A stretch of DNA of 64,000 bases from Squalus acanthias. Its lineage: Eukaryota. This document shows, piece after piece, positions 4,931 through 53,775 of this stretch. The stretch is taken from contig CM059431.1 of assembly GCA_030390025.1 (NCBI GenBank), positions 130,946,001 through 131,010,000 on the forward strand, in the 5' to 3' direction. The notes below the pieces were generated by a model that saw only the letters and a program-made list of their open reading frames with translations, did no database searches and was not told where the DNA came from. A program made the translations under genes and the position numbers. Position 1 is the stretch's first letter, and each line of letters starts with the position of its first letter.

Positions 4931-6340
4931 CAACAACAACAACAACTTGTATTTTTTTAGCACCTTTAACGTAGTAAAACGTCCCAAGGCGCTGCACAGG
5001 TGTATTTTAAGACAAAAAATTTGACACCGAGCCACATAAGGAGAAATTAGGGCAGGTGACCAAAAGCTTGGTCAAAGAGGTAGGTTTTATGGAGCGTCTT
5101 CAAGAGGAATGAGAGGTAGCGAGGCGGAGTGGTTTAGGCAGGGAATTCCAGAGCTTAGGGCCTAGGCAACAGAAGGCACGGCCACCAATGGTTGAGCGAT
5201 TATAATCAGGGATGCTCAAGAGGGCAGAATTAGAGGAGCGCAGATATCTCAAGGGGGTTGTGGGGCTGAAGAAGATTACAGAGATAGGAAGGGGCGAGGC
5301 AATGAAGGGATTTGAAAACAAGGATGAGAATTTTGAAATCGAGGCACTGCTTAACCAGGAGCCAATGTCTTCTCTTCTTAGGCAGTCCCTCGGAACCAAA
5401 GATGGCTTGCTTCCACATTAAAAATTAGTTCTCAGGTGACTGATGAGTCCAATGCGGGACCTACAGTCTCTGTCACAGGTGGGGCAGACGGTGGTTGAAG
5501 GGGCGGGTGGGTGGGGTGCTTGGGTTGACGAGCGCTCCTTCCGCTGTTTGTGCTTGACTTCCGCTTGCTCCCGGCGAAGAGACTCGAGGTATTCGGCGCC
5601 TTCCCGGATGCTTCTCCTCCACTTTGTACGGTCTTGGGCCAGGGATTCCCAGGTGTCGGTGGGGATGTTGCACTTTTTCAAGGAGGCTTTGAGGGTGTCC
5701 TTGAAGCATTTCCTCTGCCCACCTGGGGCTCTCTTGCCGTGTCGGAGCTCCGAGTAGAGCGCTTGTTTTGGGACTCTCGTATCGGGCATGCGGACGATGT
5801 GACCCGTCCATCGGAGCTGATCGAGCGTGGTCAAAGCTTCGATGCTGGGGATGTTGGCCTGAGCGAGAACACTGACGTTGGTGTGCCTATCCTGCCAATG
5901 GATTTGCAGGATCTTGCGGAGGCAGCGTTGGTGGTACCTCTCCAGTGCTTTGAGGTGCCTGCTGTACATGGTCCATGTCTCTGAAGCATACAGGAGGGCG
6001 GGTATTACTACTGCTCTGTAGACCAGGAGCCAATGTAGGTCAGCGAGCACAGGGGAGATGGGCGAACGGGACCTGGTGCGAGTTAGGACACGGGCAGCCG
6101 AGTTTTGGATGACCTCAAGTTTACGTAGGGTGGAATGTGGGAGGCCAGCCAGATTTTTGTTGGAATAGTCAAGTCTAGAGGTAACAAAGGCATGGATGAG
6201 TTTTTCAGCAGCGGATGAGCTGAGGCAAGGGTGGAGACGGGCAATGTTACGGAGGTGGAAATAGGCGGTCTTTGTTATGCTGAGGATATGTGGTCGGAAG
6301 CTCATTTCAGGGTCAAATATGACACCAAGGTTGCGAACAG
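4931..6340 (-). mobile_element. L2-clade LINE 3' fragment, split by an RTE insertion
   Basis: (CAA)n tail at 4931. Translation VRNLGVIFD...HAFVTSRLDYSN...LHWL / GGRAFCCLGPKLWNSLP is typical of the L2 ORF2 C-terminus. Similar to 55496-56045. Confidence 0.85.
5369..6021 (-). mobile_element. RTE-clade LINE, 5'-truncated, with 15-bp TSD
   Basis: VYRAVVIPALLYASETW...LRWTGHIVRM...C2H2-like CPTC..HLRT. TSD accaggagccaatgt at 5354-5368 and 6022-6036; short (AAG)-like tail. Confidence 0.9.
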
Positions 6341-19879: not shown

Positions 19880-22731
19880 ATTTAAAGTTCGCATGGATGA
19901 ACTACAGAATTTGTTCATCCCTGTTTGGCTTAAAAATAAAACAAAAAAGGTGACTCAACCGTGGCTAACAAGGGAAATTAGAGATAGCATAAGATCCAAG
20001 GAAGGGATTTATAAATTGGCCAGAAAAAGCAGCAAACCTGAGGATTGGGAGCAGTTTAGGATTCAGCAAAGGAGGACAAAGGGATTAATTAAGAGGGGGA
20101 AAATAGAATATGAGAGCAAGCTTGCAGGGAACATAAAAACTGACTGTAAAAGCTTCTATAGATATGTAAAGAGAAAAAGATTGGTGAAGTCAAGCGTAGG
20201 TCCCTTGCAGTCAGAATCAGGGGAATTTATAATGGGGAACAAAGAAATGGCAGACCAATTAAATACATACTTTGGTTCTATCTTCACAAAGGAGGACACA
20301 AATAAACTCCCAGAGATGTTGGGGAACATAGGGTCTAATGAGAGGGAGGAACTGAATGAAATCAGTATTTGTAGGGAAATGGTGTTAGGGAAATTGACGG
20401 GATTGAAGGCCGATAAATCCCCAGGGCCTGATAATCTACATCCTAGGGTACTTAAGCAAGTGGCCCTAGAAATAGTAGATGCATTGCTGGTCATCTTTCA
20501 AAATTCTATAGACTCTGGAACAGTTCCCAGGGATTGGAGGGTAGCTAATGTAACCCCACTATTTAAAAAAGGTGGGAGAGAGAAAATGGGGAATTATAGA
20601 CCGGTAAGCCTGACATCGGTCGTGGGCAAAATGCTAGAGTCCATTATAAAAGATGTAATAGCAGAGCACTTGGAAAACAGTGACAGGATCGGACAAAGTC
20701 AACATGGATTTACAAAAGGTAAATCATGCCTGACTAATCTACTGGAATTTTTTGAGGATGTAACTGGTAGAATAGATAAGGAAGAACCAGTGGATGTGGT
20801 GTATTTGGACTTTCAGAAGGCTTTCGATAAGGTCCCGCATAAGAGATTAGCGTGCAAAGTTAAAGCACATAGGATTGGGGGTAAGGTACTGATTTGGATA
20901 GAGAGCTGGTTGGCAGACAGGAAACAAAGAGTTGGAATAAACGGGTCTTTTTCCGAGTGGCAGGCAGTGACTAGTGGGGTGGGGTACCACAGGGATCGGT
21001 GCTAGGACCCCAGCTATTCGCAATATATATTAATGATCTAGATGAGGGAACTAGATGTAATATCTCCAAGTTTGCAGACGACACAAAGCTGGGTGGGCGT
21101 GTGTGCTGTGAGGAGGATGCAGAGAAACTCCAGTATGATTTGGACAGGTTGGGTGATTGGGCAGATGCATGGCAGATGCAGTATAATGTGGATAAATGCG
21201 AGGTTATCCACTTTGGTGGCAAAAACAGGAAGACAGATTATTGGCCCGGAAATTAAAGACGGAGCCTTCGTGCGGGGGTAAGGCTTCCCCGCGATATCTC
21301 ACTGCGCACCTGCCTTTTCATTCCGAGCTCGCACGAACTTGAGTTTCTAGACAGCAGCTGTGCAGTGCTTCCATATCCCACAGACGCAGTTAATTTGTGC
21401 GAGCTGTGGGATCACGTGATTCAGTTACAGCCAATGGCAGCACACCATCTTTCATTCATAGTTTTCAGAGCAAGGGCTGTGAAAGCTATGAATCTATACC
21501 CCTCCAAAAGAACAGCTAAACCTCAATAAAAATTTTTTTAAAAACCATCACATTAATAAAATAAGTATAGTTAAATAAATTAACCACTTTAAACAAAAAA
21601 TTAAATTTTTGAAAAAATTTAAAATCTTTTAAAAAGTTATAAAAATAAACTTACCTTTCTTTAAAGTCTCTAAAAAAGATATATCTGTTGAAAAAAATTC
21701 AAAATAATACTTAATTAACTACTTACCTTGTTAAAAGAGGGTCTTACGCCTCCTTTCTTTATGTGCAAAATCTTCCATGCTTACCTGCGCGTTCAAAGCA
21801 CTAAGTGCACTGCGTACGCGCAGCCTGTAGCGCGCAAGCGGTTCACTTAGGAACCGCCCCCTTTTGAAATCACCAAGTGCCGGTTTTCAGCGCATGCACA
21901 GTGCATGCAGAAAACCGGCAATTGGAGACAGAATACGCGAGAGTACACAGTGCGTACTCTCGCGTAGCAAGACTAATTTTTGGGCCAATATCTGAACGGC
22001 AATAGATTGGGAAAAGGGGAAGTGCAACGAGATCTGGGAGTCCTTGTGCACCAGTCGCTGAAGGTAAACATGCAGGTGCAGCAGGCGGTTAAGAAGGCAA
22101 ATGGTATGTTGGCCTTCATAGCGAGAGGATTCGAGTACAGGAGCAAGGATGTCTTGCTGCAGTTGTACAAGGCCTTGGTGAGACCACACCTTGAGTATTG
22201 TGTGCAGTTTTGGTTGCCTTATCTGAGGAAGGATGTTCTTGCCATGGAGGAAGTGCAGCGAAGATTTACCAGACTGATACCTGGGATGGCAGGAATGACG
22301 TATGAAGAGAGATTGGGTCAATTAGGCTAGAGTTTAGAAGAATGAGAGGGGATTTCATTGAAACTTATAAAATTCTAACAGGACTAGACAGACTAGATGC
22401 AGGAAGGATGTTCCCGATGACGGGGGAGTCCAGAACCAGAAGTCACAGGATAAGGGGTAAGCCATTTAGGACTGAGATGAGGAGGAATTTCTTCACCCAG
22501 AGAGTGGTGAACCTGTGGAATTCTCTACCACAGAAGGCAGTTGAGGCCAATTCATTAAATATATTCAAGAAGGAGATAGATATATTTCTTAAGGCTAAAG
22601 GGATCAAGAGATATGGGGAGAAAGCAGGGACAGGGTAGTGAATTTGGATGATCAGCCATGATCTTATTAAATGGCGGAGCAGGCTCGAGGGGCCGAATGG
22701 CATACTCCTGCTCCTATCTTCTATGCTTCTA
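19880..22731 (+). mobile_element. CR1 LINE, 5'-truncated, with RT domain
   Basis: NYRPVSLTS, YLDFQKAFDKVPH, KFADDTK, RPHLEYCVQFW; ttctatg tail; tac duplicated at 19877-19879 and 22732-22734. Confidence 0.95.
21243..21986. mobile_element. Harbinger-type MITE inside CR1
   Basis: TIRs ggcccggaaatta / taatttttgggcc; flanks att/aat; the CR1 frame rejoins across it. Confidence 0.85.
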
Positions 22732-23809
22732 TACTGAAGGGCTCCACCAGAAATGTCCAGGCACCTGAAACGCATTTTGAGCAACCCTATTGTTTGCTCT
22801 TTGAGACTTCTGGAGGAAATGTGGCTTTGATTGTAACGCTCCTCAGACTCGTTTGAGGGCCTCCTCAAAGGTATCATTAGCCACGACTTCAGGGGATAGC
22901 CCTTGTCCCCAAGGAGCCAGCTGGAAAGTTCATTTGGCGGAGCGAAGAGCTGAGGGACAGTGGACTGTCGCAGGATGTAAGAGTCATGGCAGCTGCCAGT
23001 TAATCTTGTGCACACATGCATGATGCTCTTCCTATGGTTGCAGACCAGCTGCATGTTAAACGAGTGGAAGCCCTTGCGGCTGACAAATGCTGCTGGGCCC
23101 TGATGGGCTGTCCTGATGGCCACATGTGTGCAGTTGATGACGCCCTGCACCCTTGGGAAGCCAGCCAGATTGACAAAGCCTAGCGCCCGCTCGGTAACAC
23201 TGGCTTCAACAGTGGAAAAGTGGATGTAATTTGCGGGCTTGTCAAAGAGGCCATCGGTGACCTGCGTGGTGCAACAGTGGGTGGCCGACTGGGAGATGCT
23301 GCTAATGTCTGCTGCTGATCCCTGGAAGGAGCCTGACACAAAGAAGATGAGGGTGGTGGTGACTTTCACAGCCACTGGTAAGGTGTGTTCACCCGCTCCT
23401 CTGGGCTGCAGGTCCTGATCGAGCATTGTGCAAATGTCTGCGACTACCTCTCGCAAAAGTCTCAGCCTGCCTTGGCACTGCTGCTCAGTCATGTTGAGGA
23501 AGCTCATCCTCGGCCTGTAAACCCTGTGTTGGGGGTATCTCCTACGGCGCGGGCCAGCCCTGCGCTGATGGCCTCTGCCCTGTGCAGCATGAGGTGTTTG
23601 AGGAGAAGGTTGGCGCTCTTGTTGTTGGTGATACTGCTGTGCCTGGTTCTGCTGCTGCTGCGGCTGATCCTCCTCAAATTCTGAGGACCAGGATGAGAGA
23701 GTATAAATCGTTCCCATTCTGCTGTTATATATGGCAGTTGAGGATGAGATGTTATAAGCAGTCAGTCAATGGGGAGAGAGGTTATTCCAAGGAGGTGACA
23801 GTGCATATA

Positions 23810-26269: not shown

Positions 26270-28476
26270 AAAACAGAAAATGCTGGAGAACCTCAGCAGG
26301 TCAGGCAGCATCTGTGAAGAGAGAAACAGAGTTAACATTTCAGGTCGATGACCTTTTGTCAGAACTGGAAAAAGCAGGAAATGGAACAGATTTTTAAGCA
26401 AGTGTAGAGGCTGGAAAAGGGGGGAGGGGATGAAAGAACAAAAGGGAAGGTCTGTGATAGGATAGAAGGCGGAAGAGGTTAAGAGACATTAAGAGATATT
26501 CAAGGCAAAAGGAGATGGTAATGGGACAGGTTAAGAAACAAAGGATGGCTCTAGATGAAGTGTAAATTGCGCTGGCAGAATGGAAGACAGCTGCCATGTG
26601 GGGGGAGAAGAAAAAAAGACAGACAAAGAGTGTGGATAAAAAAAATATATATATATATGATAGGGACCGAGGTTATGATCTGAAATTGTTGAACTCTATG
26701 TTGAGTCCAGAGGGCTGTAAAGTGCCTAATCGAAAGATGAGGTGCTGTTCCTCGAGCTTACGCTGAGCTTCCATGGAACAATGCAAGAGGCCGAGGACGG
26801 TGAGATGTGAGTGGGAGTGAAGTGGTGAATTAAAGTGATAGGCGACCGGAAGCTCGGGGTCCCCCTTCCGGACTGAATGGAGGTGTTCCGCAAAGCGGTC
26901 ACCAATCTGCGTTTGGTCTCCCCAATGTAGAGGAGACCACATCGTGAGCAGCGAATACAGTATACTAAATTGCAAGAAGTACAAGTAAATCGCTGTTTCA
27001 CCTGGAAGGGGTGTTTGGGGCCCTGGACAGTGGGAAGGGGGGAGGTATAAGGGCATGTGTTGCATCTTCTGCGCTTGCACGGGAAGGTGCCGGGTGAAGG
27101 GGAAGGGGTGTTGGGGGTGATAGAGGAGTGGACTAGGGTGTCGCGGAGGGAGCAGTCCCTACGGAATGCTGAAAGGGGAGGTGAGGGGAAGATGCGTTTG
27201 GTGGTGGGATCACGCTGGAAGTGGCGGAAATGGCGGAGGATGATCCGTTGAATGTGGACGCTGGTGGGGTGAAAGGTGAGGACAAGGGGAACTCTGTCGT
27301 GGTTCTGGGAGGGAGGGGCAGGGGTGAGGGCAGAAGTGTGGGAGATAGAACGGACACGGTCAAGGGCCGTGTCAACCACTGTAGAGGGGAATCCTTGGTT
27401 GAGGAAAAAGGAAGACATGTCAGAAGCACTGGTATGGAAGGTGGCATTGTAAGAGCAGATGCGGCGGAGACGGAGAAACTGGGAGAATGGAATAGAGTCC
27501 TTACAGGAGGCAGGGTGGGAGGAAGTGTAGTCCAGGTAGCTGTGGGTGTCAGTGGGCTTGTAGTGAATGTTAGTCAATAACCTATCCCCAGAGATGGAGA
27601 CGGAGAAGTCGAGGAAGGGAAGGGAAGGGAAGAGTCGGAGATGGACCATGTGAAGGTGAGGGAAGGGTGGAAATTGGAAGCAAAGTGAATGAAATTATCT
27701 AGTTCAAGGCGAGAGTAGGAAACGGCACTGATACAGTCATCAATGTACTGGAAAAAGAGGTGAGGGAGGGGACCTGAGTAGGACTGGAACAAAGAGTGTT
27801 CCACATATCCCACAAAAAAGCAGACATAGCTAGGACCCATGCGGGTTCCCATAGCAACACCTTTGATTTGGAGGAAGTGAGTGGAGTCAAAGGAGAAGTT
27901 GTTCAATGTGAGAACAAGTTCAGCCAGGCGGAGGAGGGTGGTGGTGGTGGATGGGGACTGGTTGGGCCTCTGTTCAAGGAAGAAGCGGAGCGCCCTCAGG
28001 CCATCCTGGTGGGGGATGGAGGTATAGAGGGATTGTACGTCCATAGTGAAAAGGAGGCGGTTGGGGCCAGGAAACTGGAAACTGTTAAAGTGGCGGAAGG
28101 CGTCGGAAGAGTCGCGGATGTAGGTGGGAAGAGACTGGACAAGGGGAGAAAAAATAGAGTTGAGATAGGAAGAGATAAGTTCCGTGGGGCAAGAACAGGC
28201 TGAAACGATGGGTCTACCAGGGCAGTCCTGTTTGTGGATCTTGGGAAGGAGGTAGAAGCGGGCTGTGCGGGGTTGGGGAACTATGAGGTTGGCGGCCGTG
28301 GGGGGAAGATTTCCAGAGGAGATGAGGTCAGTGACAGTCTTGGAAATGATGGCTTGATGTTCAGTGGTGGGGTCATGGTCCAGGCAGAGGTAGGAGGAGG
28401 TGTCGGAGAGTTGGCGTTCAGCTTCTGCTAGGTAGAGGACAGTTCGCCAAACAACAACAGCACCACCCTTGTCAGC
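26270..28476 (-). mobile_element. Penelope-like element (RT plus GIY-YIG endonuclease), 5'-truncated
   Basis: PADKGG, YLLPKIHK, GVAMG, YIDD; CxxxxCxxC; NLVYCIRC..YIGET..RFAEH..GLN. 15-bp TSD agggtgggtgggatg (26255-26269, 28477-28491). Two frameshifts. Confidence 0.95.
26328..26368 (-). ncRNA. Minimal type-I hammerhead ribozyme motif (degenerate)
   Basis: Minus strand agtt-CTGACAA-a-aggtc-atc-gacct-GAAA-tgtt-aact; core CUGANGA mutated at G8. Confidence 0.65.
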
Positions 28477-31514: not shown

Positions 31515-34146
31515 TCTGTTTCTAACCTACCAAATTCCATTATCATTTTAAACACCTTTGTAATATATGTGGGTAGAACAAATGAAGGACAGAGACACGA
31601 TGAGTTGCTAGTCAAGGTGCTTGTTTACTAGGCCAGAGCGAACTGAGCATGCTCATACTAAACCATGTGACAAACTGCTTTCCCCTAAAAGAAAATTACA
31701 TATTCCCCTCTCAAATACAACAAAACTATGGTCCCACCATTCCCAGCATTGCATGTACCACATAACAAAAACTCCTGGCTTTTTTTCTTTTAAATCAACT
31801 ACAAATGATACAAATGAACTACAAATCCAGTTTAATAACAGGTTTGTGGAGCCTTCCTGATCTGCTTAGAAAAGGTTTTGGTGTTGAACCAATTTTCAGG
31901 CTGTTCTGGTTACGAACTCAAAGATGATCCTGTTTCTATCTCAGATTTGTTTGAACCTGGTACTTCAGTTTCTGAAGTCTGAACGGAGTCAAACTCATGT
32001 ATGTGTTCATGATCACGTCTTGGTTCATCTCTAGCAGAGATCATTTGACCTACATGAATACTTCGGATGTGGTCGTAAATATCTCTTGATTCCACCAACC
32101 TCTACTATGGTTCCTATATCCCACTTGTGTGAACTTGACTTGCCAGAGCAACTGAGAACACGAACACACTCGTTTTGTCTGAAACTGTGTTCTTTCTGAT
32201 TGCTGTCATAATAACGTTCCTGACTCAACTGTTTCTGTTCAACTCTTGAGGCCAAATTTTGTTGAACAAGACTCAATCATGTTCTCAATCTCCTCTTCAT
32301 CAAGAGTTCTGCTGGGGTATGTCCAGTTGCAGTGTGCGGAGTAGTTCTGTACTTCAGCAAGAAATTTGTCAAATGTTGCTTCATGCTGAGTCCCGAACAA
32401 CCCTGCAATACTTGCTCTTTGAGAGCTTCTTTTACTATTCTGACTGACCTTTTGGCTGCTCTGTTTGAAGCTGGATGATATGCTAGAATGAGAGTGTGTT
32501 TGATACCGTTCCATTTCATTACTGTTGGATAGAGCAGAACGGAACTGAGGGCCATTGTCAGAAACAAGCTCTTCAGGTAAGCCATGACATGCGAAGATAG
32601 ACCTCAACTCATCTATGGTACGTTCAGTTGTAGTATTTGAACCCATATGTTTCACTTCAATCCACTTTGAGTGATTATCTACAAGTACCAGGAAATAATC
32701 ATTTGCTTTCTCACAGAAGTATACATGTACTCTCTGAAAAGGTCTACTTGGCCATGACCAGGGTTGTAGTGGAGTTTTACGTGGTTTGTTTCTGAAATTT
32801 TGGCAAACGCTGCATTTACTGACAAGTGACTCAAGATCACTGTCCAATCCAGGCCAGTAAACAAAGCTTCTTGCAATTGATTTCATACTGACGATCCCTG
32901 GATGTTCAGTATGAAGTTTGGCCAGAATTCTATCTCTCAAAGAAGTAGGTACCACCACTCTGTTTCCCCACTTAATACAATCTTGCTCACAAGACAATTC
33001 AGTCCAACGGTTATGGAATGGTTTCAATTCTGTGTCCATACACTGATCAGTCCATCCATTCTAGGTGTTTTCGTACACTCTTTTCAGTACTGAGTCCTTT
33101 TGAGTCTCATTTGCATTCATGGGAAAGTCTTTGTCAACTGCACTAAGCGTGAAAATCTCACCCTCACTCCCAACACATGAGTCTTCATGTGGCAACCTGG
33201 ACAAGGCATCTGCGATTGCGTTTTGCTTTGAAGTGCGATATTCAGTCGTGTAGTCATATTGTGACAACAACACTGCCCAATGTTGCATTCTTGATGTGGC
33301 CATTGCAGGGATGGCAGATTTGGGCCCCAATATTGCTAGAAGTGGTCTGTGATCGGTTATCAGGATAAACTTTCTGCCGATCAGGAACTGTTGAAATTTC
33401 TTGATTCCAAACACTATGGCAAGTGCTTCCTTTTCAATTTGCATGCAGTTTCTTTCGCTCCTTGTGAGGGTTCGCAATGCGAACGCGATTGGTTTCTCTT
33501 GGCCATCATCCATTACGTGGCTTATGACAGCTCCCACACCATAGGTAGAAGCATCACATGCTAACTTAAGCTCACGCTCTGTATCGTAGTGCATAAGTAG
33601 AGCATCGCTAGAGAGACTTCCCTTACAAGCATCGTAAGCTTCCTGTTGCGCTTTTGTCCACTTCCACTGGACAACCTTCTTGAGGAGCTCGTGCAATGGA
33701 GCTAACATGGTCACTAACTCAGGTAAGAAACGTGCGTAGTACTGGACCATTCCAAGGAAAGATCTTAACTCAGACAAGTTCTGTGACTTTGGAGCATTGA
33801 TGACAGCATCTACCTTTTCCTTAACTGGTTGCAAGCCATTTGCATCAACTTTCAGACCAAGGTACACAACCTCGGGCTGCACAAAAGCACATTTGCTCCT
33901 TTTCAATTTGACATTGTGGGCAATCAACCTTTGAAGCACTATATCTAACACTTCTAGATTTTCTTCCTCGCTGCTTGCTGCGATCAGCACATCATCTTGA
34001 TTGCGTAAGCAATTTGGAATTCCTTGCAAAATCTTATCCATCGTAGCCTGGAAGATTTTGGGGGAGGACTTTACACCATATGGCAGCTTGGTGTATGAGT
34101 ACAGTCCCTTGTGTGTGTTGATAGAGAGATACTGTTGACTCTCTTT

Positions 34147-35087
34147 AAATATAAGGGGTATGATTAAGAAGTTTGCAGATGATACTAAAATCGGCTGTGT
34201 GGTTGATACTGAAGAAGGAAGCTGTAGACTGCAGGAAGATATCAATAAATTGGTCAGGTGGGCAGAACAGTGGCAAATGGAATTCAATCCGGAGAAGTGT
34301 GAGGTAATGCATTTGGGGAGGGCTAACAAGGAAAGGGAATACACATTAAATGGTAGGACACTGAGTAGTGTAGAGGAACAAAGGGACCTTGGAGTGCATG
34401 TCCACAGATCCCTGAAGGTAGCAGGCCAAGTAGATAAGATGGTTAAGAAAGCATACGGAATGCTTGCCCTTATTAGCCGTAGCATAGAATACAAGAGCAG
34501 GGGGGTTATGCTTCAACTGTATAAAACACTAGTTAGGCCTCAGCTAGAGTACTGCGTGCAGTTCTGGTCACCACATTACAGGAAAGATGTGATTGCACGA
34601 GAGAGGGTACAGAGGAGATTTACAAGGATGTTGCTGGGAGTAGAGAATCTTAGCTATGAGGAAAGCCTGGTTAGCTGGGTCTGTTTTCCTTGGAACAGAG
34701 GAGGCTGAGGGGAGACCTTATTGAGGTGTATAAAATTATGAGGGGCATAGATAACGTGGATAGAAAGGACCTATTTCCCTTAACAGAGGGGTCAAAAACC
34801 AGGGGGCACAGATTTAAAGTAATTGGTGGAAGGTTTAGAGGGGATTTGAGGGGAAATTTCTTCACCCAGAGGGTTATGGGAGTCTGGAACTCACTGCCTG
34901 AAAGGGTGGGAGAGGCAGGAACTCTAACCACATTTAAGAAGTACTTGGATGTGCACTTGGGAGGCTCTAACCTGCAGGGCTACGGACCAAGAGCTGGGAG
35001 GTGGGATTAGGCTGGATAGCTCTTTGTTGGCCGGCGCGGACACGATGGGCTGAAATGGCCTCCTTCCGTGCTGTAACTTTCTATGAT
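34147..35087 (+). mobile_element. CR1 3' fragment inserted in Gypsy A RT
   Basis: KFADDTK..RPQLEYCVQFW..NFFTQRV with tail; Gypsy frame LDLSHAYTQLNV|KESQQYL rejoins across it. Confidence 0.9.
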
Positions 35088-37005
35088 TCTACATTTAGCT
35101 GAGTGTAGGCATGTGACAGGTCAAGCTTGGAGAAAACCTTTGACCAAGAGAGTGCTGCATACAAATCTTGCAATGTAGGTAACGGGTACTGCTCATCGTC
35201 AATTGCTTGGTTAATAGTCACTTTGTAGTCACCGCACAAGCGTACAGTTTTGTTTACCACGATCAGGGTAGCCCATTCACTTTTGTCAGTTTTTACTAGC
35301 ATCCGTTCTCTCTCAGTTTCTCTAGCTCTTCCTCCACCTGACTTTTCAATGCATAGGGGACTGGCCTTGCCTTACAATAGATAGGCTTCGCGTTGGACTT
35401 GATGCGGATATGCGCGTCATACCCAGTGGTGTCCTCATAACTGTCTGTGTACATGCATTTGTACTTGTTCAGCATTGTGTCAAGTTGCTTCTTTGAAGCA
35501 TTTACACTGAAGATGTTTTTCCAGTCTAGTTTTAACTTTCTCAACCAGTCTTTGCCCATGAGGGTTGGCCTGTTGTTGTAGCTCGCTACAATAATGGGCA
35601 GCTTTACTGACTGGCCATTGTGTTGAACTGTACATTCCATTTGTCCACATGTTTCTAGGATTTCTCCAGAGTAGGTTTTTAACTCTGCGGTACTCTTTGT
35701 AAATGGTATTTGATTAAACTTACTCTCATATGTGTCCTTACTCATGATAGAGCAGTCTGCCACCGTGTCAATACATATCTCAATATATTGGTCATTGATC
35801 AAAAGTTTTGTACGGAAGTCTTTCTCACACCTGCTAGTGTTGCCGTTAGTGACATAGATACTGTAGATGTCTAGTTCTTCAACAGCAAGTGTGTTCACTT
35901 CAATATTGTGAATTCCTCCCTTTTGTTGTTGAAGCTTTTCATTGCCATGAGAATGGTTCTTTCTTCCTGCTTTCAATCTAGCTTTGCAAGCTGTTGAAAT
36001 ATGGTCTTGTTTCTGGCAGTGAAAGCACTTCACATTTCTGTACTGCATGACTGTGGTGAGTGATTTCCATTGCAGTGATAACAATTCACTGAACTGCTCT
36101 CATTGACATGCTTTTGACTTGCTCTCACAACTTTATGTTTGGCGGTGGTTTTGTGACTGTCGACTTCAGCTGCACTAGTCACTTGAGTTGGACGGAGCTC
36201 CCTAGCATTCTTAGATGCCATCTCCATAGATAGGGCAATTTTGCATGCTATGTCAAATGTTAGGTTCGGAGTGTTCAGTAATTTGGACTGTGTGCGCTCA
36301 TCCACCAGTCCACGCATAAACTTATCTCGTAACACACGATCCAAAAATGTGCCAAAGTTACAATACAAAGACAGGTTTTTAAGAGCTACAATGTACTCAC
36401 TGATGGCTTCACTTTGCTTTTGGTTTCTGGTACCAAACTTATAGCTCTCTGCTATTTCTAATGGCTTTGGGTCGAAATGGTCCTCGAGTTTCTTGACAAT
36501 GTCTTCAAACGATACACCCATCGCTTTCCCTGATGCGTGTAGGTTTGTTAATGTTCTGTAGACATCTGGCCCGATCTCCGTTAGAAAAATTGCTTTTTTA
36601 CGTTCACGAGTTAATTTATTTTGACCTTGAACATTCTCATCTGCACCTTCGGTCTCAATAATGTTATTGGCTTAAAAAACATCTCAATCCACTCAATGTA
36701 AGAACTGAATGGTTCGCGAGCTCGGTCATACATGCCGAGGCTTCCGATGAATCCCATAGGCGCGGCCATGATTGTCCCGATCCCATTGAACAGTGACTCA
36801 GCATGCTACCTGTGTACCTGTGAGAATCAATGACATTGTTGCTGTGTATACATGCACGCGAAGGCGAAGCACAGATGATTCTGCATCAGCATTAACAGTA
36901 AAACATCGCAAAAAATTCAGTTTAGGTGTCACAAATTCACCTTAAACTTTTTCACTCAAAGGTTGAACACTGTGTCCTTCCATGATCCCTAAAAATAGTT
37001 TTGGG

Positions 37006-45832: not shown

Positions 45833-48664
45833 TATGCATCAAATGGAAGTGTTGTAGCTACTTTGAAGTCTTCCATTCAGTAAGAGCACTAGGGAACTAG
45901 CGTTGATCAATCAAATGGAAGCGCAGAAGGATGGTGACATCAGCTTCTTACCAAATAATGTGACCTCTTTGTAGGCTAGTAATGCATTAAACATAAAGGC
46001 AGCTGAGATCTTTCATTGTGTCTCTGGGAGGAGCTATTTAACATTTTCAGCATGTGTGGCTCTCTCTTTTCCTTTACCATCATTTATAGTATTTGGTGCA
46101 GTCCAGCAGCATATGTCCACAGTAACTGCCAACGAGCAACAAACCAGATCCTCATTAATGATGATTGAATCTACCATGTTATGAATAAAAATTAACTAAT
46201 TTAGTGAATGATGATAAAGACTTGCTCACCCATATCCAAATTTTATTTTAACAAGGTTATGTGCATTTCTCATAAAATGTATTGAATGAACAGTAAAACT
46301 GATGTTTCTGCCATAAGTTTAATAGAGCAAAATTACCTCTGACAAGTAGCTCTCTGTAACAGGGTGCAGCTCGTAATCACATTATTCTGTCTGTCTTGTG
46401 TTAGTGCCAAATTGAGTCCAAACAGAAATTTATTGAGCACGTATCCTGATGCAAGGCAGATATTGCTTCACTGGACTGAATACTGGAATTTGTTTTTCTT
46501 CTGCCTGTGAATGATGATGGCATTAAAAGGCTTCACATTTGTAAATTATTCACCCACTAATGGACACATGGATGTGTACTGTCTTACCAAATTGAGGAAT
46601 GGTTGGTTGATGATTGATGGGTGAGATCAAAGGTTCTATCCATCAATCATTCAGCTTCTTCTTAAACTAGTATAATATTACTCAGGCATCTGATGTTCAT
46701 AAATAAGACTGAAATCCCACAATCCTTCCACATCTGATGTAATAGCTGAGTTGAAAGGGAAGTAATATACCTTCTGCTGATAAAATTCCTCTGATAAATT
46801 TAATCCTGATCCCGTTTAAAAGCCTCTACAAACTTCATTCTAGTTGTCTTTTCATCGGCAATATGGAATCTGAGTTTACAGATGTCCCACAATCCCAATC
46901 CGGGTTAGGAGGTAAAGGAATTATGGAATCTAGGGTCCTGAGTGAGAAAGATTGGGGAAACAGCCTGAGAAACTGGGATCACTGAACCAAAATAAGGGTC
47001 TTAGGCAGTTGATGATCCAGGCCTCTTACAGTGCTACTTCTGAGCCAACCTTAGAAGATCTACTGCAGCAATCGGGTGACCTGTTCACCAATTTTCACTT
47101 GCTACGGGTAAGTGCTACCTTCTCCGATAACACAGCCATGTGAGAACTTGTTATGAGGGGAACCATTGTATGGCAAAGCATATTGGAGCACCGACAAAGA
47201 CTTAGATTTTTTTTTAATGGGATTAGGGTGAAATGTAACATGAATTTCAACCGAGTTGCAATTAATGCAATTCTGGATTCTTTTCTGACATAACAGCAAC
47301 TACAAGCAACATCTGAGCAGAATTCCAGACCAAATTGGGAATAGTCATGTGGGCAAATACTGAAGAGACCCTTAATCTTATCACTCCTTGCAGTTGTGCC
47401 ATCCGATATTTCCATTTTTTTTGTGTTGAGAAAGTAGTTGATGTCTTATTGGCCAAAATATATTTTACCCCTATTTCCCATATTCGACCATGCTGTCAGA
47501 AGAATTCACGAGATATCAAGCAGGTGCCAGGCTGTTCCCCACAGGAAGGGAAAGTTTGTAAATTAATCCATAATTGGCTCATTTTGGTGACTGGAATTCT
47601 GTTCAAATCTTGCTCATAGTCACTACTATTCCAGAAAATCCAAAGGCATATTAATAGTGAAAGTGTTGTCAGAGGAGCAGTGGGGCCAATTACGGACCAA
47701 AATGGAGATTTATTGGTAGGGGCATAAGTCATGCCTGAGGTACTAAATCAATACTTTGCATCAGTGTTAACCAAGGAAGAGGACTTTGCCAAAGTTACGG
47801 TAAATGAGGAGGATGTCGGGATACTGGATGAGATAAAAATAGATAAAGAGGAGGTACTAGAAAGTCTGGCAGTACTTAAAGTGGATAAGTCACCCGGTCC
47901 GGATGGGATGCATCCTAGGTTGTTGAGGGAAATAAGGATAGAAATTGCGAAGGTACTGGCCACAATCTTCCAATCCTTCTTGGCGGTAGGTGCCAGAGGA
48001 CTGGAGGACTGCAAATCTTACACCCTTGTTCAAAAAAGGGGAGAATGATAAACCTGGCAATTACAGGCCAGCCAGTTTAACAACGTGCTGGTGAGGAAGC
48101 TTTAAGAAAAAATAATCCAGGAGAAAATTAACAGCCACTTGGGCAAGCATGGACTAATAAAGGAGAGCCAGCACAGATTTGTTGGACAAATCGTGTTTGA
48201 CTAATTTGATTGAGTTTTTTGATGAGGTAACAGAGAGGATGGATGAGGGCAGTGCAGCTGATGTTGTGTATATGAACTTTCAAAAGGCGTTTGATAAAGT
48301 ACACATATTAGGCTTATTAGCAAAATTGAAGCCCATGGGATAAAAGAGGCGGTAGCAGCATGGATACAAAATTGGTAATAAACAGAGAGTTGTGGTGAAT
48401 GGCCGTTTTTCAGACTGGAGGGAGGTTGTTGTTTCGTATGATGGGAAAAACTTATAATCGGATGTCTAGTTTGGCTATCCAGTCAATGGCCTCCTGAGAT
48501 GCCGAGTGGAGGGAAGTATATAGTGGTTCTCCCCAGGGTTCTGTACCAGGACCACTTTTGAAGCATTTAGATGAGCACTTGAAACGCCATAACATACAAG
48601 GCTACGGACCAAGTGCTGGAAAATGGGATTAGAATAGATAGGGCTTGATGGCCGGCATGGACAC

Positions 48665-48847
48665 TGTCGTAAGAATGAGCCTTACGCGTGGTAAACTTAA
48701 TGTAAGCTTTAATCAACTTAAAACGGTGCTGCATACAAAAGAGGTCTTACCCTATGCCTCTTCCAGATCTGACTGATCAGTCCAGTATTTATCCTGGACT
48801 GATTACAGGAAGTGATGTAATACAGGAAGCTGAAAAGTGTTACCACA
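48665..48847 (-). repeat. 3' LTR of Gypsy B
   Basis: Base-for-base identical to 52902-53084. Confidence 0.97.
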
Positions 48848-48865
48848 TTCTCCCCCCCCAAAAGA

Positions 48866-51800
48866 TTAGGAGGCCGGGATGCTCCCTCCATTTCGTAGCC
48901 GTTGGATGAGGGAGAGCCGCACCCGTTTGGGTTCTCGTAGCGGTAGAGGGCCCCTAGCCCGTTTACCCGCTGCAGGCCATGGACCAGAGTCCGAGTGCTC
49001 CAGCCCGCTCTGTGAGGGGTCAGAACGATCCTGACTGTGTACTGGTACCCGAATGGGTGTCGGGCAGGGCTGTGGCAGATCCGTTTCTGAGCGTACGGTA
49101 CAGGGTTGATCGTGGCTGCGCGTGCGAGCCCCGACGGGCTCATAGTCAGTCTGCCCCAGGTCGGCACGCTGGAGTGAGGTACCAGCCGGCGTCAGATCCC
49201 GATCATGATGAGAGGCACCTGGCAAGCCCAGAGATGTGCCTGGTACAATATCATCCCCTGGTGTCCCTCTATGTTTCGGCGGGCAGGGAGCCAGATCCCG
49301 CAATGACACGGTAGATTCCCGACCGTCAGGATACCGAATATAGGCGTAGGTAGGGTTGACGTCAGTGAGCTCAACCTCATCTACCAGGGGGTCATTCTTA
49401 GACGCCCGGACATATCTTCGGAGTAGCACTGGTCCCGGTGCAGTCAGCCACGACGGGAGAGATGTCCCATAGGATGAGCGACGCTGAAATCGGAAGAACC
49501 GTTCATGAGGCGTCGTATTTGTGGCGGTCGAAAGGAGGGACCGTGTGGAGTGTAATGCGTCTGGAAGTACTGCTTCCCAATGCTGGTTGGGTAGGCCCCG
49601 AGATCTCAAAGCCAGACGTACCGCATTCCAGATGATAGCGTTAAAACGCTCGACTTGCCCATTCCCAACCGGATGATAAGGCGTCGTTTTGCTGGCAGCA
49701 ATACCCCGTTCCGAGAGATAGGCCTTGAGTTCTCCCGACATAAAAGAAGGGCCCCGATCTGAATGAACATAGGATGCCATGCCACAGAAAGCAAATACCT
49801 GTTCAAGGCAGCTGATAACCGTGGTTGTCAGCATATTGGGGCAGGGAAAGGCAAACGGAAAACGAGAATACTCATCAACCATTGTTAATAGATAAGTGTT
49901 GCGAGTCGAAGAGGGCAACGGCCCCTTAAAATCGATGCTAAGCCTTTGCATTGGCTGGGTCGCATGTATGAGTATACCACCCGAGGGGCGGAAAAACCGA
50001 GGTTTCAATTCCGCACAGACTCTGCAGTCCGAGCACATCTTCTTTACATCCCCGGTAGAGAATGGGAGATTTCGGGACCGCACGAAGTGCAGCATGCGAG
50101 TAACGCCTGGATGACACAACCCATCATGGATGTCTACGAGCGTAGAGGGTGCCATGGCGGAGCAGAATGCTCGTGTGAGGGTATCCGGAGCCACATTCTC
50201 CTTGCCAGGTCGATAGTGGATGGTGTAACCAAAAGAGGCCAATTCCAGCCGCCAAAGCTGGATTTTATTATTTTTAATTTTGGTCCGTTTTCGATTATCG
50301 AGCATGAAGGCGACCGATCGCTGGTCCGTGATTAAGGTAAAGTGCTGGCGAGCCAGGAGATGACTCCACTTCCGTACTGCCTCTATGATGGCTGTAGCTT
50401 CTTTCTCGACTGGAGGATAATGTAGCTCAGCCCCTTGAAAAGTCCTGGACAAAAATGCCACCGGACGACCTTCCTGATTCAGAGTGGCTGAGATTGCCAC
50501 CTCCGAGGCATCACACTCAACCACGAAAGGAAGACTCTCATCGATGGAGTGAAGAGCCGCTTTCTCCAACTGCTTTTTCAGGAGGTTAAAGGCTGCAACA
50601 GCCGTTGTGTCTAGTGGGAATATGCTGGCCTTCAGTAGAGGTTGGATTCGGTCCGAGAAGTTAGGAATCCATTTCGCATAGTATGCAAACAGGCCGAGGG
50701 CCCGGCGCAAGGAGGCCGGATTCTTAGGTGGCGGGAGTTCTTGGAGTGGGCGAAGCCTTTCAGGGTCAGGTTTAATGATGCCATTGCCCACACAATAGCC
50801 AAGGATGTTGATAGTTGGTTGTGACTCAATGGATTTAGCCGCATTCAATGTCAAATTACGGTGCTGGAGTGCATCCCAAAATCGTTGGAGATTGGCGTCA
50901 TGTTCCTGCTGATTGCGACCTGCGACAGTAATATTGTCCAGATAAGGAAACGTATCCTTCAAGTCTTCCTGTTTGACCAGGTCATCCATTGCTCGCTGGA
51001 AGACAGCCACTCCATTAGTGACCCCAAAGGGGAGGCGACGAAATTGATACAGCCGCCCATTGGCTTCAAAGGCTGTATACTGCTTGTCTGAGACCTTCAA
51101 GGGTACCTGATGATAGGCGCTTTTCAGATCATAAGTCGAGAACACCGTGTACTCAGCCAATTTATTAACCATATCATCGATGCGCGGCAATGGGTATGCG
51201 TCCAAGTCCGTATACTGATTGATGGTCTGTGAATAGTCAATGCACAGCCGTTTCTTGTGAGGTTGTAGAGGGTTCTTAACAATAACGACCTGGGCGCGCC
51301 ATGGCGACGAACAAGGCTCGATGATATCCTCTGCTAAAAGCCGAGAAATCTCAGCCGCAATAAAAGACTGGTCTTCCTGACTGAAACGGCGTGACTTTGT
51401 TATAATCGGTTTGCATCGAGGAGGGATACTGGCAAACAGTGAGGGTTCATCCAGTGAAGCTGCTGACAAGGCACAGAACGGTAATCGAGGTCGTATATTA
51501 GAAATAGTGAGTTCAGGTTTGGATCCGCCGAACTCAATGGTAAGCTTCTTATGCTGCTTTTGAAAATCCAGCCCTAAGATAAGATCACTACATAAGTCCT
51601 TGAGCACCGAAAGCCGGGTGGAGGGATACCTGTGACCTTTAAGCATTATTTCAACTACACAGAAGCCAGAAATTCTGGTATTAAGTGATGACTGAGCCAT
51701 CGCAACTGCCTGGTCCGATGGAAAAACATGTAGCTTTAACTGTGCAACAGTCTGTTCCCTAATGAAACTATCAGTGCTACCTGAGTCAATTAAGGCATCT

Positions 51801-52822
51801 AAAGTATGTCCATTAATTGATGCTTTTGTAGCTGCATGGAATAGGTTCTGAGGACAAGCAGCTGTAATTGGTGTCGTTGCACAAAGAGTGGCTGAAATTC
51901 TAGGTGTGTTTCTTCGAGAAAAAACCCGAGAGGAAGCACGATAGTTTTTAGTTGGAACATCCTGATAGGCCCTTACTGGGGCAGTTCGGTAGGACTTAGC
52001 TTGATAAGCCCTCGTAGAGGCTCTTGATAGGCAAACCTTTACAAAATGACCCTTTTTGTTGCAATGACTGCAAAACGCATTGCGAGCAGGGCAGAATCTC
52101 CGAGGGTGAAACTCATCACCACAAAAAAAGCATTTCTTAGATTGCCAAGAGGCTGCCACAGTGGGGTCATCATCCTCTTCATCAGTGAAGTCATCAGATC
52201 GATCGTCAGGGATAAAGTCCTCCCTAATAGAGTTCACCTGTGGCCTCTTAAATTGCCTGACTGTAGTTAAGGCAGCAGACCGAGGTCTGGGCACTGTAAA
52301 AAGGTCTGCATTTCTTTTTGCCAGATCTAGAGAGCAAGCCAGGTCATAAGCTCTCTGCAGCTCAAGTGTCTTACTTTCCAGTAGACGCTGGCGTATAAAT
52401 GGGGAGGCAAGCCCGCAGATGAACGCATCACGGATCATTTCTTCGCGGTATAGCTCAGCTGAGGCTGCCCGAAAGTTACAGTCCATACTAAGTCTGCGAA
52501 GCTCTTGGAGGAATTTATCAATGGATTCCTCCGGCCCTTGTTGGGCTGTAGCTAGTAGATGTCTAGCATAGACCTCATTCGGTGTCTTAGTATATAGTCT
52601 CTTAAGCGTCTGAATTGCCTCCTCATAACTGTCCCAGTCTTCCACATACTGAAATACATTCGGGGTGACACAGTTGATGAGTATCCGCAACTTTGAGTTA
52701 TCATCAGCTTTGCAATACTCAAGAAAATTCTCAAACGTGCGATACCAGTGTTTCCACACCTTACCGGCTGCTGGGGTGTTTGGGTCCAAGTCAAGACGCG
52801 ATGGTTTAAGGATGTTTTCCAT
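48866..52822 (-). CDS. Gag-Pol polyprotein (1318 aa): gag, zinc knuckles, protease, RT, RNase H, integrase
   Basis: CFFC..H..C and CSHCNKKGHFVKVC; LIDSGST; DLKSAYHQ, LPFG, YLDN; VECDAS, TDQ; HPG..CRVC, IDFKG, HSDRG, GNGQVERFN. Confidence 0.97.
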   Translation of the reverse strand: MENILKPSRLDLDPNTPAAGKVWKHWYRTFENFLEYCKADDNSKLRILINCVTPNVFQYVEDWDSYEEAIQTLKRLYTKTPNEVYARHLLATAQQGPEESIDKFLQELRRLSMDCNFRAASAELYREEMIRDAFICGLASPFIRQRLLESKTLELQRAYDLACSLDLAKRNADLFTVPRPRSAALTTVRQFKRPQVNSIREDFIPDDRSDDFTDEEDDDPTVAASWQSKKCFFCGDEFHPRRFCPARNAFCSHCNKKGHFVKVCLSRASTRAYQAKSYRTAPVRAYQDVPTKNYRASSRVFSRRNTPRISATLCATTPITAACPQNLFHAATKASINGHTLDALIDSGSTDSFIREQTVAQLKLHVFPSDQAVAMAQSSLNTRISGFCVVEIMLKGHRYPSTRLSVLKDLCSDLILGLDFQKQHKKLTIEFGGSKPELTISNIRPRLPFCALSAASLDEPSLFASIPPRCKPIITKSRRFSQEDQSFIAAEISRLLAEDIIEPCSSPWRAQVVIVKNPLQPHKKRLCIDYSQTINQYTDLDAYPLPRIDDMVNKLAEYTVFSTYDLKSAYHQVPLKVSDKQYTAFEANGRLYQFRRLPFGVTNGVAVFQRAMDDLVKQEDLKDTFPYLDNITVAGRNQQEHDANLQRFWDALQHRNLTLNAAKSIESQPTINILGYCVGNGIIKPDPERLRPLQELPPPKNPASLRRALGLFAYYAKWIPNFSDRIQPLLKASIFPLDTTAVAAFNLLKKQLEKAALHSIDESLPFVVECDASEVAISATLNQEGRPVAFLSRTFQGAELHYPPVEKEATAIIEAVRKWSHLLARQHFTLITDQRSVAFMLDNRKRTKIKNNKIQLWRLELASFGYTIHYRPGKENVAPDTLTRAFCSAMAPSTLVDIHDGLCHPGVTRMLHFVRSRNLPFSTGDVKKMCSDCRVCAELKPRFFRPSGGILIHATQPMQRLSIDFKGPLPSSTRNTYLLTMVDEYSRFPFAFPCPNMLTTTVISCLEQVFAFCGMASYVHSDRGPSFMSGELKAYLSERGIAASKTTPYHPVGNGQVERFNAIIWNAVRLALRSRGLPNQHWEAVLPDALHSTRSLLSTATNTTPHERFFRFQRRSSYGTSLPSWLTAPGPVLLRRYVRASKNDPLVDEVELTDVNPTYAYIRYPDGRESTVSLRDLAPCPPKHRGTPGDDIVPGTSLGLPGASHHDRDLTPAGTSLQRADLGQTDYEPVGARTRSHDQPCTVRSETDLPQPCPTPIRVPVHSQDRSDPSQSGLEHSDSGPWPAAGKRARGPLPLREPKRVRLSLIQRLRNGGSIPAS

Positions 52823-52901
52823 GATGGGTGATTCCCTGGATCCTTAGCTCCGAGTTCGTCCAAAAAGTTTGAGTGCGAAGTTTTTCCAAAGTTGATTAAA
52901 T

Positions 52902-53084
52902 TGTCGTAAGAATGAGCCTTACGCGTGGTAAACTTAATGTAAGCTTTAATCAACTTAAAACGGTGCTGCATACAAAAGAGGTCTTACCCTATGCCTCTTC
53001 CAGATCTGACTGATCAGTCCAGTATTTATCCTGGACTGATTACAGGAAGTGATGTAATACAGGAAGCTGAAAAGTGTTACCACA
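52902..53084 (-). repeat. 5' LTR of Gypsy B
   Basis: Base-for-base identical to 48665-48847. Confidence 0.97.
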
Positions 53085-53775
53085 GACACGATGGGCCGAA
53101 GGGCCTCTTTCTGTGCTGTATAAATCTATGACTCTATGACTCTGTGACACTGCTGTTTTTGATATACATTAATGACTTGGACTTGGGGGTACAGGATACA
53201 ATTTTGAAATTTGCAAATGACCCAAAACTTGGAAGCATAGTAAACAGTGAGGAAGAGAGTAATAGACTTCAAGAGGACATAGACAGGCTGGTGGAATGGG
53301 CAGACACATGGTAGATGAAATTCAATGCAGAAAAGTGTGAGGTGATACATTTTGGTTGAAAGAATGAGGAGAGACAAGAGAAGCTAAATGGAACAATTTT
53401 AAATGGGGTGCAAGAAAAGAGAGACCTGAGGGTATTTGTGCACAAATCTTTGAAGGTGGCAGAACGGGTTAACAAAGCAGTTAATAAAGCATATGGGATC
53501 CTGGGCTTTATAAATAGAGGCATAGAGTACAAAAGCCAGGAAGTTATGCTAAACCTATATAAAACACTGGTTCGGCCCCAGCTGGAGTATTGTGTCCAAT
53601 TCTGGCCACAACACTTTAGGAAGGAGGTGAAGGCTTTGGAGAGGGTACAGAAGAGATTTACTAAAATGGTTCTAGGGATGAGGCAATACAGTTATGTGCA
53701 TAGACTGGAGAAGCTGGGGTTGTTCTCCTTAGAGCAGAGAAGGCTAAGAAGAGATATGATAGAGGTGTTTAAATG

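Follow-up and report, generated by a model that had tools for sequence, protein, structure and literature searches.

The aspartates of the YxDD motif of reverse transcriptase (RT) are taught as invariant. Within a 64,000-nucleotide stretch of the Squalus acanthias genome (contig CM059431.1, positions 130,946,001 to 131,010,000; hereafter the window) lies an LTR retrotransposon that departs from this rule. A preliminary description of the locus had reported the motif YLDN at amino acids 627-630, an uninterrupted ORF of 1318 residues and identical LTRs, and we confirmed all three. The locus therefore raises the question of whether this polymerase is functional with an Asn closing the motif, or is a defective enzyme in an element that has only recently moved. 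From the comparisons described below, we consider it very probable that the RT of a large clade of elements naturally works with Asn at this position, the Asn state being selected and lineage-wide.

Results

Architecture of the element

The element spans 48665-53084 on the minus strand (4420 bp; Table 1). The traits of Metaviridae are all present: direct LTRs bounded by TG...CA, a polypurine tract, a short target-site duplication and the domain order gag-PR-RT-RH-IN, as given by Pfam and translation, with no env. The canonical YxDD, which is typical of Ty3/gypsy elements and not the basis of their classification, is replaced by YLDN. Judged by its sequence, the element is an autonomous LTR retrotransposon of the Ty3/gypsy group that inserted not long ago, and it belongs to a large clade found mostly in aquatic animals. 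Its protease, RNase H and integrase sites have been retained. No chromodomain at the integrase C-terminus was among the eight Pfam hits. The polyprotein ends in a Pro-rich variable tail (48866-49250), and is about 100 residues longer than most full-length relatives (about 1200-1230 residues).

The element was inserted into the tail of a host repeat that is very abundant, with LINE-like pieces on both sides, and we take the repeats flanking the element to be of the kind found in cartilaginous fishes. Contigs that skip exactly the element and its duplication (4425 nt) were present in three of four runs; they probably stem from other copies of the host repeat. Elsewhere in the window, ORF fragments at 5418-6305, 19893-21005, 26726-28044 and 34160-34708 presumably belong to LINE (RTE/CR1-like) and Penelope-like retroelements.

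Table 1. Features of the element and of the rest of the window, in window coordinates.
Feature	Position	Strand	Basis
gag-pol ORF, single, uninterrupted, 1318 aa	48866..52822	-	translation
5' LTR, 183 bp, TG...CA	52902..53084	-	direct repeat comparison
3' LTR, 183 bp, 100% identical to 5' LTR	48665..48847	-	direct repeat comparison
Target-site duplication GACAC, left copy	48660..48664	+	sequence; contig joints 48659-53085
Target-site duplication GACAC, right copy, 5 bp	53085..53089	+	sequence
Polypurine tract (G8 then AGAA), adjoining 3' LTR	48848..48859	-	sequence
Primer-binding site, 12 nt, from 1 nt past 5' LTR; no TGG start	52889..52900	-	sequence
LTR segment (LTR nt 129-140) complementary to primer-binding site; proposed self-primer	52945..52956	-	complementarity
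Two CCHC zinc knuckles of Gag, aa 231-244 and 251-264	52031..52132	-	translation; without Pfam hit
Aspartic protease, LIDSGST	51563..51826	-	Pfam PF13650/PF13975, aa 333-420
Reverse transcriptase core	50795..51256	-	Pfam PF00078, aa 523-676; RT fold
RT motif A, catalytic Asp565 (YDLKSAY), intact	51128..51130	-	translation and alignment
RT motif C, YLDN; Asp629 = 50936-50938, Asn630 = 50933-50935	50933..50944	-	alignment to Ty3 RT
RNase H; D771, E808 and D833 present; TDQ where outgroup has TDH	50231..50539	-	Pfam PF17917, aa 762-864
Integrase zinc finger and core, D-D(35)-E	49670..50143	-	Pfam PF17921/PF00665, aa 894-1051; spacing from translation
Second, older gypsy element, several ORFs (hits to protease, RT and RNase H as well as integrase), RT motif NQDD	about 32239-36521	-	Pfam and ORFs
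Harbinger-like transposase piece, DDE_Tnp_4 / Plant_tran hits	22443-23717	-	Pfam

The Asn codon is present in sibling copies

The four codons of the motif read TAT CTG GAC AAT on the minus strand. In an alignment to Ty3 RT (PDB 4ol8, E 8.7e-46), YLDN falls on YLDD without a gap, and N630 is therefore the equivalent of the final aspartate in motif C. Eighteen runs, labelled with seven organisms, contained 50% or more of the words sampled from the element. Siblings were compared as the assembled contigs, and their best-supported variants, of four (X2, X7, X11 and X17) of the 24 runs listed; runs X19 and X20 (share 0.10-0.13) were left out.

A contig of run X2 (record 18), which covers 48665-51643, had 12 differences from the window, none of them within 50933-50944, and carried the same Asn codon. 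No change at the motif was among the best-supported variants listed for X7, X11 and X17, and an 88%-identical homologue (P0025) has Asn at the same site. The idea of an assembly error, which had been raised for this position, is contradicted by the X2 contig. That the Asn is a private mutation or an error in this copy has a negligible probability, given that Asn recurs in P0025, in the majority of homologues and, with the same codon, in the X2 contig. This copy does differ from its relatives elsewhere, at roughly a dozen sites.

Asn is the majority state among homologues

Among the best 120 of 1196 full-length homologue hits, the motif ended in xDN in 97 and in xDD in 23. The best 120 of 1291 shorter homologues comprised 88 with N, 28 with D and four with another residue; three rows of this set are also among the representatives taken at 50% identity. 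The protein set that includes these representatives covered the motif in 268 of 269 members, and all 65 gypsy RTs below 38% identity had D. The counts of 97 and 88 support the first of the two possibilities put forward in the preliminary description, a lineage-wide active-site variant. The second, a private mutation in a copy mobilised in trans, is countered by this N majority and by the strong purifying selection reported below.

Named hosts of N-type elements span Cnidaria, Arthropoda, Mollusca, Platyhelminthes, Nematoda and Chordata (Xenia, Paramuricea, Stylophora, Oculina, Macrobrachium, Palaemon, Caligus, Mytilus, Plakobranchus, Clonorchis, Spirometra, Trichinella, Scyliorhinus and Narcine), while the hits from Trichuris and Trichonephila carried D. 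At the DNA level we collected 87 loci (86 plus the window, many of them redundant): 64 were N (43 AAT, 21 AAC), 13 D and four unmapped, and the six with another residue were mostly degraded or misaligned copies. Clusters at 90% identity were uniform in their covered members, with N in 6/6 and 6/6, and D in 12/12, 12/12, 4/4, 8/8 and 8/8. Families of the D type are also large, with clusters of 444, 242 and 153 members, and so N has no clear advantage.

In run X2, a single N-type contig covered most of the listed places inside the element, and the siblings listed at 85% identity or above included none of the D type. Minor D-type siblings may be present in X7, a host-like run.

The named shark and ray members (P0076 and P0094) are 58-59% identical to this element (P0001) and branch far from it; its nearer named relatives come from an octocoral and prawns (67-71% identity). 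This placement suggests that the clade entered fishes more than once. A scan of viral contigs found no relative of the element. Six loci of the clade (L081-L086), the prokaryote-genome hits, lie on MAG contigs and are probably eukaryotic contamination of those bacterial assemblies. At L001, L007, L013, L026, L030, L075, L081 and L082, the contig shows a circular permutation of the element about a single LTR, or has the same repeat at both its ends; such contigs would reflect either identical LTRs collapsed during assembly or circles with one LTR.

N and D have replaced each other repeatedly

For the phylogeny, the N/D column was dropped and 27 of the 269 proteins were left out (26 for short coverage, one without the motif). 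The resulting 242-row tree separated 179 ingroup rows from 63 outgroup rows with a support of 100. In the ingroup the site is N in 121 rows, D in 56, Y in one and a gap in one. A minimum of 14 changes between N and D was required on this tree, and 12 on a 66-row IQ-TREE subset, where at least eight were forced by starred branches. N as a single clade was rejected (p-AU 2.6e-5). So was the exclusion of the six D rows from the element's own 22-row group (p-AU 0.018), a group picked after the tree had been seen.

With outgroup rooting, D is the early state, N is dominant in the derived group, and D recurs inside that group, sometimes in large families. The deep position of a single N row, P0224, points to a separate gain of N.

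Several sequence signatures were clade-wide, in N and D members alike: R509/Q511, S531 with an inserted residue, G604/V605, D642, N644 and, in RNase H, TDQ for TDH. T632 and G635 were strongly enriched. Close to the polymerase site the signature motifs are SPWRAQ, DYSQT with its extra residue, and NGV in motif B. When 14 columns were tested for residues that switch together with N/D in eight independent pairs, none was significant among the best-column results listed. As the signatures are clade-wide and none of the columns listed switches with the site, we read them as permissive changes that preceded Asn; naming individual compensating residues would be a guess from these clade signatures.

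N-type RTs are maintained by selection

The remaining catalytic residues are kept in the 121 N rows. Asp565 was present in 118 of 120 and Asp629 in 121 of 121, and in RNase H we found D771 in 118 of 119, E808 in 113 of 115 and D833 in 108 of 109. An intact RT stretch was available for 44 loci. For 14 between-family N-N pairs with measurable dS, which come from six loci and are not independent, dN/dS of the RT was 0.025-0.066. Seven within-family pairs had values of 0.6-1.4, as expected from decay after insertion. Over all 630 N-N pairs, the median pN was 0.28 compared to a pS of 0.86.

Near-identical siblings showed a similar pattern: 14 of the 17 listed differences in the core were at third codon positions (P 5e-5), and those in the C-terminal tail had no bias (5 of 10). 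Six other N-type insertions (L006, L012, L014/15, L018, L019 and L024), from one assembly series and three families only, had 5-bp duplications, an LTR identity of 99% or higher and 975 or more codons of open frame. By these measures, the N-type RT is under strong purifying selection. Together with the kept catalytic residues, this pattern is not what a dead polymerase carried in trans would be expected to show.

A putative self-priming site is shared by N and D members

No tRNA-type primer site was seen after the LTR of the element, and ARAGORN found no tRNA gene in the 64-kb window. The 12 nt that begin one base past the 5' LTR are complementary to LTR nt 129-140. Perfect self-priming stems of 11-19 nt were present in 35 of the 41 loci with a mappable gag start (all except L038, L039, L055, L057, L071 and L080). 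In controls, stems of at least 11 nt arose in 4 of 1230 shuffles and in none of 40 gag controls. About 20 different arm sequences occur by our own count, with both sides changing in step. The window's own fold is weak when taken alone (z -2.1).

The stem was also found in the D-type loci L026 (15 nt) and L016 (12 nt), of which L026 lies outside the main N-containing group; D-type L002 had no stem in the available DNA. Priming and Asn are therefore uncoupled. Of the suggestion that the Asn might be linked to unusual priming, one part stands, in that the self-complementary site is real and clade-wide, but a causal link is not supported, given the stems in D members and the position of L026.

We infer that minus-strand synthesis is self-primed as in Tf1. 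The 12-nt LTR segment would pair with the post-LTR site and be cut at its 3' end to yield the primer, and this mode of priming would be older than Asn and independent of it. In the region of LTR nt 136-160 (about 52925-52949), here and in relatives, the self-primer arm terminates in T/A-AAA, a motif resembling a poly(A) signal, after which GCCT/ACCT and a small hairpin usually follow. Pairing of the arm may also hide the 5' poly(A) signal or indicate where the cut is made.

How an Asn may be tolerated

What would allow a polymerase to work with Asn at this position? In the mechanism that we favour, the two kept aspartates (Asp565 and the first Asp of motif C) would bind the metals, while the amide of Asn would take over the secondary role of the third residue, in primer-end positioning, pyrophosphate release and processivity. 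The clade-wide changes near the polymerase site, including the T and G after motif C, and the TDQ of RNase H would have arisen while the site was still Asp. On this permissive background N and D would become nearly interchangeable, and the penalty in vivo would be removed. An AlphaFold model has the RT fold (pLDDT 87); accommodation of the Asn is not visible in it.

Two other explanations would deny that the Asn form is the working enzyme. If the N-type RT were dead or crippled, it could have been moved in trans by D-type relatives, since D-type families occur throughout the clade (23 of the 120 best full-length homologues), and a D-to-N change is lethal to the transposition of yeast elements. 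Such an enzyme is very improbable, because it is at odds with strong purifying selection of the RT in N lineages over saturated synonymous distances, with the retention of the other catalytic residues, with clusters that are uniform for N or D, and with the lack of a D sibling among those listed in run X2. Scarcely more credible is a gene that encodes Asn and a working enzyme that carries Asp, through post-translational deamidation or because A-to-I editing changes the first base of the codon. AAT/AAC and GAT/GAC are a single A-to-G change apart, the restriction of the site to N and D fits a chemical or editing interconversion, and a small converted fraction could suffice. However, toggling between N and D only is equally expected of two tolerated isosteric residues, and in 117 of the 121 N rows the Asn is followed by Ile or Val. 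Asn before Ile or Val deamidates slowly. Nor was a change at 50935 among the best-supported variants listed (9 of 27) for run X17, which we guess to be RNA.

A third explanation accepts an active N-type enzyme and regards Asn as an adaptation (for self-priming, use of Mn2+, lower pyrophosphorolysis or altered fidelity) and not as a near-neutral tolerated state. N predominates in the large derived group and has persisted in six phyla, and Ty1 D211N favours Mn2+ and has 320-fold lower pyrophosphorolysis (in the accessible part of PMC2148107). Self-priming in D members, repeated returns to D with large families, and the lack of a co-switching residue all weigh on the other side, and we regard adaptation as unlikely, if far less so than the two explanations above. 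It is compatible with our preferred explanation, a naturally active N-type RT, and differs from it only on why N persists.

Copies in other organisms

In comparisons with runs X2 and X17, the element had an identity of 99.6% in organism B and of 97.9% in organism G, while a piece of the flank (46500-46770) reached only 91% in B. It was contained in two runs labelled B, which are equally large and may be a single data set, but not in two further runs from that study. These observations hint at a recent horizontal transfer, a patchy invasion or contamination. In run X7 the depth of the element was 1.5-2.8e5, compared to 14-34 for unique flank contigs, which suggests a high copy number, although summed contig depth is not equal to copy number.

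Discussion

The data above can be drawn together into a broader proposal, which we think quite possible while stopping short of calling it probable. An undescribed, animal-wide Ty3/gypsy clade would have acquired Tf1-like self-priming independently of the chromoviruses, and its RT would then have been remodelled so that the third Asp became dispensable. The outcome would be a transposition-competent, two-aspartate polymerase that switches freely between N and D, and that spreads between distant aquatic hosts, including a very recent transfer between species of the host group.

If this is true then, taken with BEL/Pao and HEART elements, the 'invariant triad' becomes an invariant dyad plus one site that is repeatedly Asn. 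The natural N/D sister enzymes of the clade allow a direct test: P0069 and P0081, for example, are each separated from the node that joins them by only about 0.1 substitutions per site. Targets for such a test are the role of the third aspartate and the second-site changes that make it dispensable. For annotators, YLDN is no ground for calling such elements defective. In addition, the clade seems to provide a further, separate instance of reverse transcription in animals that is self-primed.

Where does the clade stand among described elements? We take the label PolGy to denote metazoan Gypsy clades that possibly include this one, and the doubled CCHC of its Gag presumably resembles that of Mag. 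It may be among the large gypsy clades of aquatic invertebrates named MolGy1-16 (PMC6238403), a paper whose accessible part has no mention of the active site or the primer-binding site. The motifs of the clade were absent from the searched supplements of PMC6238403 and PMC8556966, in the parts available. DYSQT, GVTNG and SPWRAQ had no matches in the available supplements of PMC11673190, PMC2774666 and PMC13524379, where alignment gaps could hide motifs. The accessible parts of a chaetognath paper (PMC2678813), PMC2774666 and PMC13524379 contain nothing on the motif, and that of PMC10886601 nothing on self-priming. In the literature searched, which did not extend to Repbase Reports and subscription journals, we found no account of YxDN or self-priming in a metazoan gypsy clade; members of the clade are probably catalogued in those two places under family numbers. 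Kuafuorterviruses and Troyka elements were rejected as candidates, as they have I/V/L-ADD and are mostly 5-6 kb (from the accessible part of PMC11673190), compared to YLDN and 4420 bp here.

Among known systems, Ty3 shares both the RT fold and the residue register with the element and is its best match by sequence; ranked by fold among solved RTs it comes fourth, after two MMLV entries and CaMV. The primer used by Ty3 is a tRNA. According to the accessible parts of PMC2148107 and PMC5371799, the motif A aspartate and the first YxDD aspartate are essential in Ty1 and Ty3, and the mutants Ty1 D211N and Ty3 D214N keep polymerase activity and lose transposition. Asn at the last position lowers rate and processivity, with kpol of Ty1 cut 223-fold, and second-site suppressors in Ty1 map to RNase H and restore 5-10% (same sources). 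The earlier expectation that D-to-N cripples the RT or blocks transposition therefore holds for transposition in these mutants, but not for polymerase activity, which stays. In Ty1 and Ty3 the Asn is artificial and stops transposition, whereas that of the clade is natural, is the majority state and is found in recent insertions.

A natural Asp-to-Asn change at the same position is known from the YVDN of nematode BEL/Pao elements (Cer7-Cer12 and Atlas virus), including an intact element with identical LTRs (accessible part of PMC9094657). Whether activity is retained was left open in 2005, in the part of PMC554778 available. BEL/Pao elements, which form a different superfamily, have a triple Cys-His Gag and DD(45-53)E, some with env, whereas our element has two CCHC knuckles, D(35)E and no env (PMC554778, same part). 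The two knuckles and the D(35)E spacing rule out an identity as BEL/Pao (Belpaoviridae), and the Asn of the clade presumably arose independently of theirs. HEART elements of ticks have YIDN or HLDN in motif C, in a supplementary RT alignment (PMC11673190, as available); they are a separate retroelement group, and their motifs otherwise differ from those of the clade.

Self-priming has been reported for Tf1/sushi, Tcn1 and the copia TAR lineage (accessible part of PMC6317226). In Tf1, Tf2, sushi and Tcn1 the primer-binding site is complementary to at least 11 nt of the element's own LTR, as it is here (PMC7175516 and PMC6317226, both in part). The primer of Tf1/sushi chromoviruses consists of the first 11 nt of the RNA and is released by RNase H. 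Unlike Tf1/sushi, our element has no chromodomain hit, and the stems of its clade are 11-19 nt long and always end at T/A-AAA.
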